Assembly: GCF_003334335.1 (NCBI RefSeq)
Contig: NZ_QOWQ01000024.1
Reading direction: 5' to 3' (one strand)
Length of the DNA stretch: 64,000 bases
From: Escherichia coli
GTDB taxonomy: Bacteria; Pseudomonadota; Gammaproteobacteria; Enterobacterales; Enterobacteriaceae
In this document: positions 4,081 to 4,249 of the stretch, in pieces
Numbering within the stretch: position 1 is the first letter of the stretch
Layout: the number at the start of each line of letters is the position of its first letter
Notes under the pieces: generated by a model
The model's database searches: none
Told to the model about the DNA's origin: nothing
The model's input: only the letters and a program-made list of their open reading frames with translations
Made by a program: the position numbers and the translations under genes

Positions 4081-4096
4081 ACGCAAACGTGTGCGT
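4081..4096. promoter_or_regulatory. PurR operator (PUR box) upstream of purC
   Basis: ACGCAAACGTGTGCGT matches the 16-bp PurR box consensus (ACGCAAACGTTTTCNT class) with one deviation from perfect dyad symmetry. Confidence 0.7.
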
Positions 4097-4149
4097 CTGC
4101 AGGAAAACGCGATTTTAGCGGTAATTCGCACGAAATTTGTTTGTCGGAC

Positions 4150-4185
4150 GTAGTTCGGATAAGGCGTTCACGCCGCATCCGACAA
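4150..4185. repeat. REP (repetitive extragenic palindromic) element
   Basis: GGATAAGGCGTTCACGCCGCATCCG-type REP sequence in the bamC-purC spacer. Confidence 0.8.
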
Positions 4186-4249
4186 AACATCCGGCACACC
4201 AGACAGCAAAAGATTTTAAAACGTTAATTCACACCCAGGAGTGATAAAG

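Follow-up and report, generated by a model that had tools for sequence, protein, structure and literature searches.

A normal Escherichia coli purC control region: the PurR operator lies on the transcription start, and the long leader very likely reflects a lineage-specific, probably neutral REP insertion

The region upstream of purC in the window (i.e., the whole 64-kb stretch of Escherichia coli DNA that was analyzed) is very likely a normal purC control region, in which the PurR operator (PUR box) sits on the transcription start site and the length of the leader is due to a lineage-specific, probably neutral insertion of a REP element. The regulation is known and the REP is a probably neutral passenger confined to one lineage, so there is nothing new in kind at this control region.

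The window contains the E. coli K-12 dapA-bamC-purC region, with the gene order dapA, bamC, purC, ypfJ, and tmcA, and MG1655 differs from it at 1 of 5001 positions in the dapA-bamC-purC region (coordinates were converted as MG1655 = 2601868 - window position). A 351-nt query (positions 3950 to 4300), which underlies bamC and purC, matched 5426 of 5426 complete E. coli genomes. The upstream gene, bamC (nlpB), occupies positions 3003 to 4037 on the plus strand according to the RefSeq annotation of an identical E. coli sequence. A terminator scan identified its intrinsic terminator on the same strand (4044 to 4070), consisting of a GC-rich hairpin (4044 to 4065; 9-bp stem, 6 GC) and a T-run (6 T); hairpin and T-run were kept after bamC at every enterobacterial orthologous locus examined. 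A bamC start site within dapA (NC_000913.2 position 2597255; 368-nt leader) has been reported besides cotranscription with dapA (Kim et al. 2012, PMC3415461). The purC coding sequence (SAICAR synthetase; 237 aa, 714 nt) is annotated at positions 4250 to 4963 on the plus strand, and its orthologues showed 69 to 100% identity. Its Shine-Dalgarno sequence, AGGAG (4237 to 4241, plus strand), was read from the sequence 8 nt 5' of the ATG and is conserved across genera. The program-made list of ORFs begins purC at GTG 4241, which is in frame but falls within the Shine-Dalgarno region; annotation and conservation both place the start at the ATG at 4250. As a separate observation on this gene pair, the third-codon-position divergence between strain SCPM-O-B-8794 and the window rose from 0.05 in purC to 0.29 over the final 900 nt of bamC (locus L003), which suggests a recombination boundary at or near the bamC-purC intergenic region in that strain.

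The first-pass annotation had named published transcription start mapping as the check on its reading of this region, and such mapping exists. The supplement of Kim et al. (2012, PMC3415461) gives a single purC start, at position 2595803 of NC_000913.2 (minus strand), with a 163-nt 5' UTR. The 51-mer listed there as the upstream sequence (ending in ...CTGATATGATACGCAAA) occurs once in the window, and its last base is the A at position 4087 (+1, plus strand). This position agrees with the length of the 5' UTR (i.e., 4250 - 163 = 4087). The assignment of the purC start is based on this one genome-wide data set together with sequence geometry. Neither a purC entry nor its coordinates were found in the accessible portions of the start site supplements of Ettwiller 2016 and Mendoza-Vargas 2009, and a Klebsiella purC start was not found in the accessible portion of the Kim et al. 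supplement.

The geometry relative to A4087 is that of an extended -10 promoter (4072 to 4080, plus strand). The sequence TGaTATGAT provides a TG at -15/-14 (4072 to 4073) and a TATGAT hexamer at -12 to -7 (4075 to 4080) that matches the -10 consensus at five of six positions, and +1 lies 7 nt past the hexamer. The same TGaTATGAT was invariant in Escherichia, Citrobacter, Pseudocitrobacter, and RIT691. It is held within the 10 nt between the T-run and the PUR box, and the 3' arm of the terminator occupies the would-be -35 position. There was no recognizable -35 element; candidate hexamers at spacers of 16 to 19 nt matched TTGACA at 0 to 2 of 6 positions. A generic scan that requires two hexamers detected no promoter around the PUR box, because the -35 element is absent where the terminator arm lies. 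In its TG, its -10 hexamer, its absent -35, and its start spacing, the purC promoter is like the galP1-type extended -10 (TGn) sigma-70 promoters, with no notable difference. Transcription would therefore begin at A4087 from an extended -10 sigma-70 promoter confined to the short interval that separates the operator from the bamC terminator.

The PUR box itself, ACGCAAACGTGTGCGT (4081 to 4096), has one mismatch to the 16-bp palindromic consensus ACGCAAACGTTTGCGT, including the central CG. It was the only match in the 64-kb window, with 0.01 matches expected by chance at one mismatch or fewer. The first-pass annotation had put the box directly after the bamC terminator and about 155 nt upstream of the purC ATG. 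Both statements were borne out: the box starts 10 nt after the T-run, and 153 nt separate its end from the ATG. The identical 16-mer or its reverse complement was present at approximately 25 other enterobacterial purC loci, i.e., the box is conserved across species. The PurR ChIP-chip peak at purC carries exactly this motif (Cho et al. 2011, PMC3159470), with log2 ratios (2.08 with adenine and 1.52 without) that are among the highest in the table of that study. In an IPOD-HR study that presents purC as its showcase, the PurR site at purC was occupied in rich medium and this occupancy was lost in a purR deletion (Freddolino et al. 2021, PMC8282354). Furthermore, the RNA polymerase signal at the site was substantially higher in the purR deletion (PMC8282354). 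Within the PurR regulon, this box is already catalogued as the operator of purC, and its regulation was known.

Given +1 at A4087, the PUR box spans -6 to +10, which is a promoter-occluding position from which a bound repressor can interfere with RNA polymerase at the purC promoter. The pattern in the purR deletion (occupancy lost and polymerase increased) is what competition for overlapping sites predicts. A PurR dimer loaded with hypoxanthine or guanine would compete with RNA polymerase for the same DNA, and PurR on -6 to +10 would block purC initiation by steric exclusion, a mechanism that we infer here. The first-pass annotation had envisaged two layouts, with transcription starting either upstream of the operator, so that the REP would fold within the leader, or downstream of it, so that the operator would work from an upstream position. 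The part of this that stands is that the REP is transcribed and lies within the leader. The operator, on the other hand, neither acts from upstream nor forms a roadblock far downstream, since the published start falls inside it and it covers the start region of the extended -10 promoter. The remark that either layout would be somewhat unusual holds in part: the operator occupies a standard promoter-occluding position, and a 5' leader is an atypical place for a REP.

We considered whether the main purC promoter might instead be located past the PUR box, or even past the REP, with PurR acting from upstream, or whether a second, PurR-independent promoter might feed purC. The failure of the two-hexamer scan near the box would fit such an arrangement, as would the good -10 hexamers found just downstream of the box in Enterobacter-like genera (described below). 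The arrangement is contradicted by the sole purC start given, at 4087 (Kim et al. 2012), and in the 10 nt that follow the box E. coli has no hexamer resembling a -10 element (A at position 2 and T at position 6). Moreover, the extended -10 element on the upstream side has perfect spacing and does not vary, and the signals of PurR and RNA polymerase fall at the same place (PMC8282354). A downstream promoter is thus highly improbable, and initiation at A4087 under the control of an overlapping operator is the reading that we retain.

Comparison with the rest of the regulon places the purC operator among ordinary members. It shares with the operators of purF, purL, purMN, purHD, purEK, purT, and others the 16-bp near-palindrome with a central CG, one mismatch to the consensus, a core-promoter location, and purine-dependent PurR binding in vivo. 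Of the PurR motifs, 44% are located between the -35 and -10 elements (Cho et al., PMC3159470). Unlike these, the purC box lies just past the -10 element and covers +1, as the purC promoter belongs to the extended -10 class and the terminator takes up the -35 region. At the purB and purR sites, PurR acts as a roadblock, bound to an operator located a long way past the start (He & Zalkin 1992, as cited in PMC3159470), and the PUR boxes of both genes are inside the ORF (PMC3159470). The repressor and the type of box are the same at purC, and the 153-nt spacing at first sight suggests a leader or roadblock operator there too. We rejected a transcriptional roadblock for purC: unlike the purB and purR operators, the purC operator overlaps +1 rather than lying well downstream, and hence it acts on initiation rather than elongation.

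A side observation concerns the promoter on either side of this box in other genera. The PUR box stays in place after the bamC terminator, while the best -10 hexamer seems to lie on one side of it in some genera and on the other side in others. The four taxa named above (Escherichia, Citrobacter, Pseudocitrobacter, and RIT691) have TGaTATGAT immediately upstream of the box, and Kluyvera and Pluralibacter have TATAGT there; no -10-like hexamer was found downstream of the box in any of these six. Enterobacter and Leclercia (L004, L005, L012, and L015) carry CATAAT 2 nt downstream of the box, and Phytobacter, ESNIH1, P. vulneris, and others carry TAGAAT, TAAAAT, or GATAAT 3 to 5 nt downstream. 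The loci with a downstream -10 were L004, L005, L012, L015, L014, L017, L021, L025, and L026, which were compared with positions 4072 to 4110 of the window, with L007 to L013, and with L024. The upstream side was poor in most of the downstream group; Phytobacter and Bisph1 had TATTAT 4 nt before the box. This pattern suggests promoter turnover around a fixed operator, with the box over +1 in one group and in the -35/-10 spacer in the other. Such apparent hopping of the -10 element across a fixed operator among enterobacterial genera may be of interest for research on promoter evolution.

The distance from the box to the ATG was compared across the purC loci of 80 species (a set that does not include Salmonella or E. 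fergusonii). In Citrobacter, Enterobacter, Leclercia, Pseudocitrobacter, Phytobacter, and Cedecea, the identical box starts 65 to 69 nt before the ATG; it starts 75 to 88 nt before the ATG in a few other loci, giving 65 to 88 nt across approximately 20 non-Escherichia genera. Only E. coli and E. albertii, among the loci of these 80 species, had a distance of 168 to 169 nt. In the alignment, an unbroken match extends from the T-run through the -10 element to the box and is followed by an approximately 101-nt block present only in Escherichia and then by the conserved ribosome-binding region. The gap of about 155 nt between box and ATG is thus due to an Escherichia-specific insertion of approximately 101 nt, and no special regulatory design is needed to account for it.

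The core of this block is a 72-nt insert (4132 to 4203, plus strand) that contains the REP and is absent from all non-Escherichia loci examined. Local self-alignment showed that the insert is flanked by an imperfect direct repeat. The left copy, CAGGAAAACGCGATTTTAGCGGTAATTCGCAC, lies at +14 to +45 (4100 to 4131, plus strand), and the right copy, CAGCAAAAGATTTTAAAACGTTAATTCACAC (4204 to 4234, plus strand), adjoins the ribosome-binding site. Of 300 shuffles, 7 scored equally well in the self-alignment, and both copies aligned to sequence that is single copy in Citrobacter and Pseudocitrobacter. The approximately 31-nt imperfect repeat looks like a target duplication. To our knowledge, target duplication is not a feature of transposase-mediated REP movement. 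An ancestor of E. coli and E. albertii therefore very likely gained an insertion of approximately 101 nt in a leader of approximately 61 nt, consisting of a 72-nt segment with one Y-type REP plus an approximately 31-nt duplication of target sequence. Sequence comparison places the event after the divergence from Citrobacter but before E. coli and E. albertii separated.

The insert was present in at least 5406 of the 5426 E. coli genomes and also in E. albertii. Presence was scored as at least 80% coverage of the REP-containing query, of which a REP-less allele could cover at most 71%. With a synthetic REP-less junction query, the top matches were two-piece alignments spanning 101 extra bases, and the same 5406 genomes passed 80%. 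The other 20 of the 5426 genomes failed both the REP-containing and the REP-less queries. Every E. coli genome that could be evaluated thus carries the insertion, i.e., it is fixed among them. Independent insertions were seen in the same stretch of the leader in Kluyvera (approximately 65 nt; L018, approximately 1371 to 1500) and in Enterobacter sp. BIGb0383 (approximately 35 nt; L021, approximately 1401 to 1500), where the box-to-ATG distances are 130 and 100 nt, respectively. No E. coli-type REP was found in either of these two leader insertions. Their independent occurrence indicates that this stretch of the leader tolerates insertions and deletions.

The first-pass annotation had located a REP at 4150 to 4185, between the box and the Shine-Dalgarno sequence, and its coordinates were accurate to 2 nt. 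The REP core is a single Y-type copy (4150 to 4183, minus strand) with three mismatches to the Y-type REP consensus of E. coli. On the plus strand it begins with GTAG (4150 to 4153), and it covers +64 to +97 of the 163-nt purC leader. Its arms (4155 to 4167 and 4170 to 4182) are 85% complementary, and there is an outer inverted pair at 4140 to 4148 and 4178 to 4186. The transcribed REP would probably form its own hairpin at about these leader positions. Six REP copies, i.e., this one and five more, occur in the 64-kb window, where none is expected by chance, and the copy at 45515 to 45548 matches the consensus exactly. The 351-nt query had a median of six megablast places per E. coli genome, and the extra places covered the REP only. 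The element thus has the two marks of a REP, an imperfect palindrome of approximately 35 nt with a GTAG/CTAC end and many dispersed extragenic copies.

Its context is not the usual one (i.e., 3' UTR or intercistronic, often as a BIME pair). REPs are found mostly between convergent or tandem genes, and the approximately 40% of E. coli REPs that lie between tandem genes behave as 3' UTR-associated elements (bioRxiv 10.64898/2026.03.23.713779). The purC REP shares with the Y-type REPs and BIMEs of E. coli the sequence, the terminal GTAG/CTAC, the hairpin, and the multicopy extragenic distribution. It differs from them in being single rather than a BIME pair, in lying in a 5' UTR past a terminator and downstream of a promoter, and in being flanked by the imperfect duplication. 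As a Y-type copy the purC REP is ordinary; its location is uncommon. Among the papers accessible to a literature search, none mentions purC together with REP, and no experiment on the purC leader was found. The copy of the MG1655 record (NC_000913.3) used here gave no repeat_region features, even at a canonical REP (2592978 to 2593011); the missing REP annotation at purC is therefore uninformative.

Three further observations were made on REP sequences in the window. First, an isolated second copy of the 8-nt REP head (GCCGGATG) is present at 4188 to 4197 (minus strand, GTGCCGGATG), 4 nt from the head of the purC REP (GTCGGATG, 4176 to 4186); it may be what is left of a second REP that has decayed, or of a partial duplication. 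Second, the REPs at 33596 to 33629 and 33696 to 33729 are 100 nt apart, and the 25 nt that flank them on the CTAC side are identical, which points to tandem duplication of a unit. Third, the REPs at 45515 to 45548 and 56510 to 56543, 11 kb apart, share flanks on both sides, including (g/a)aaatcgtgctaattcaatatattg. The latter flank may resemble an IHF site of the kind present in BIME-1/RIP elements.

Rates of change were compared between E. coli and E. albertii. The insert differed at 10 of 72 positions and the left repeat copy at 7 of 35, and the difference at third codon positions was 0.14 in purC and 0.28 in bamC. No difference was found in the T-run, -10 element, and box (0/31) or in the last 46 nt of the leader (0/46). 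The rate at which the insert diverges is thus close to synonymous, whereas the two species are identical in the promoter, the operator, and the ribosome-binding region. Among seven Escherichia sequences, 19 of the 72 insert positions varied, compared with one variable site in 4204 to 4249. The stem of the REP has also changed without compensation, by a U-to-G change at 4160 in E. albertii and by changes at 4180 and 4182 in strain SCPM-O-B-8794; in strain 675SK2, two C-to-T changes keep G-U pairs on the mRNA strand.

In RNA folding of the leader, which the first-pass annotation had also named as a check, the inner hairpin of the REP was predicted in all three Escherichia leaders folded, with outer helices that differed among species. 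The fold of the whole leader was not significantly more stable than that of shuffled sequences (-47.5 kcal/mol versus -42.5 ± 4.1; z = -1.24). The predicted pairing probability of the Shine-Dalgarno sequence was 0.36 with the insert and 0.36 after in silico removal of 4111 to 4211. An Rfam search of the leader reached no family gathering threshold; the match to naRNA4, a REP-derived family, scored 30.9 bits versus 59.5 and reflects similarity to REP only.

Several roles for the leader were rejected. A riboswitch or attenuator is not consistent with the absence of an Rfam family, the fold z-score, and the lack of conserved outer helices. A C-rich leader for Rho loading was dismissed because the leader is neither rich in C nor poor in G (C/G = 0.95). 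Small upstream ORFs were limited to unconvincing GTG or TTG frames that have no Shine-Dalgarno sequence. Finally, an effect of the insert on access to the ribosome-binding site was discarded given the unchanged predicted pairing of the Shine-Dalgarno sequence.

It is conceivable that the REP hairpin has been co-opted in Escherichia for posttranscriptional control, as an RNase barrier or entry site, as a pause or Rho-modulating structure, or as a protein-binding site, such that purC output would depend on the REP besides PurR. Such a role would accord with the presence of the insert in nearly all E. coli genomes and in E. albertii, with the inner hairpin predicted in each Escherichia leader, with the two 675SK2 polymorphisms that keep sense-strand G-U pairs, and with effects of REPs elsewhere on mRNA decay and termination (bioRxiv 10.64898/2026.03.23.713779; PMC12306157). 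We nevertheless regard it as unlikely. Divergence of the insert is close to the synonymous rate, some of its stem changes are uncompensated, the fold is not significant, Shine-Dalgarno accessibility is unchanged, and the base composition lacks the bias noted above. All other genera do without the insert, and purC was not found in the accessible portions of the supplements to the Adams et al. 2021 survey of 3' ends in 5' UTRs. A version in which the co-opted hairpin sets mRNA half-life or modulates access of Rho or RNase in the 163-nt leader, and in which the approximately 31-nt duplication also records an unusual, target-duplicating REP insertion, appears quite unlikely. If the hairpin were co-opted, purC in Escherichia would be subject to an additional level of control that is absent from other enterics.

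Alternatively, the REP might serve bamC, acting in transcripts that read through the terminator as a barrier to 3' exonucleases or as a back-up attenuator. The REP lies 113 nt past the bamC stop codon, and the 3' UTR-associated behavior of the tandem-gene REPs cited above would suit such a function. However, the strong and conserved bamC terminator precedes the REP, and the purC start lies between the two, so most REP-containing RNA should be purC leader. The REP is also absent from other genera with the same gene pair, and the rate of change in the insert is near neutral. Taken together, we consider a bamC-related function very unlikely.

We return to the reading of the REP as a passenger. 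Judged from sequence evolution and folding predictions, the REP in the leader is most likely a tolerated passenger that would play no part in PurR control and would leave ribosome access unchanged. As its neutrality is deduced from these two sources, the REP may still have a modest effect on mRNA decay. The fixation of the insert in evaluable E. coli genomes, together with an inner stem that has largely been kept, is compatible with weak selection or with homogenization by the REP transposase.

The significance of these results hardly extends beyond housekeeping. For research on REP mobility, it may be of interest that a REP insertion into a 5' UTR, accompanied by a flanking duplication, could be dated. 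The purC locus illustrates that the distance from an operator to the ATG says nothing about its distance to the transcription start. The odd spacing in this textbook regulon stems, on the reading that we favor, from a lineage-specific repeat insertion and not from an unusual mechanism of repression.
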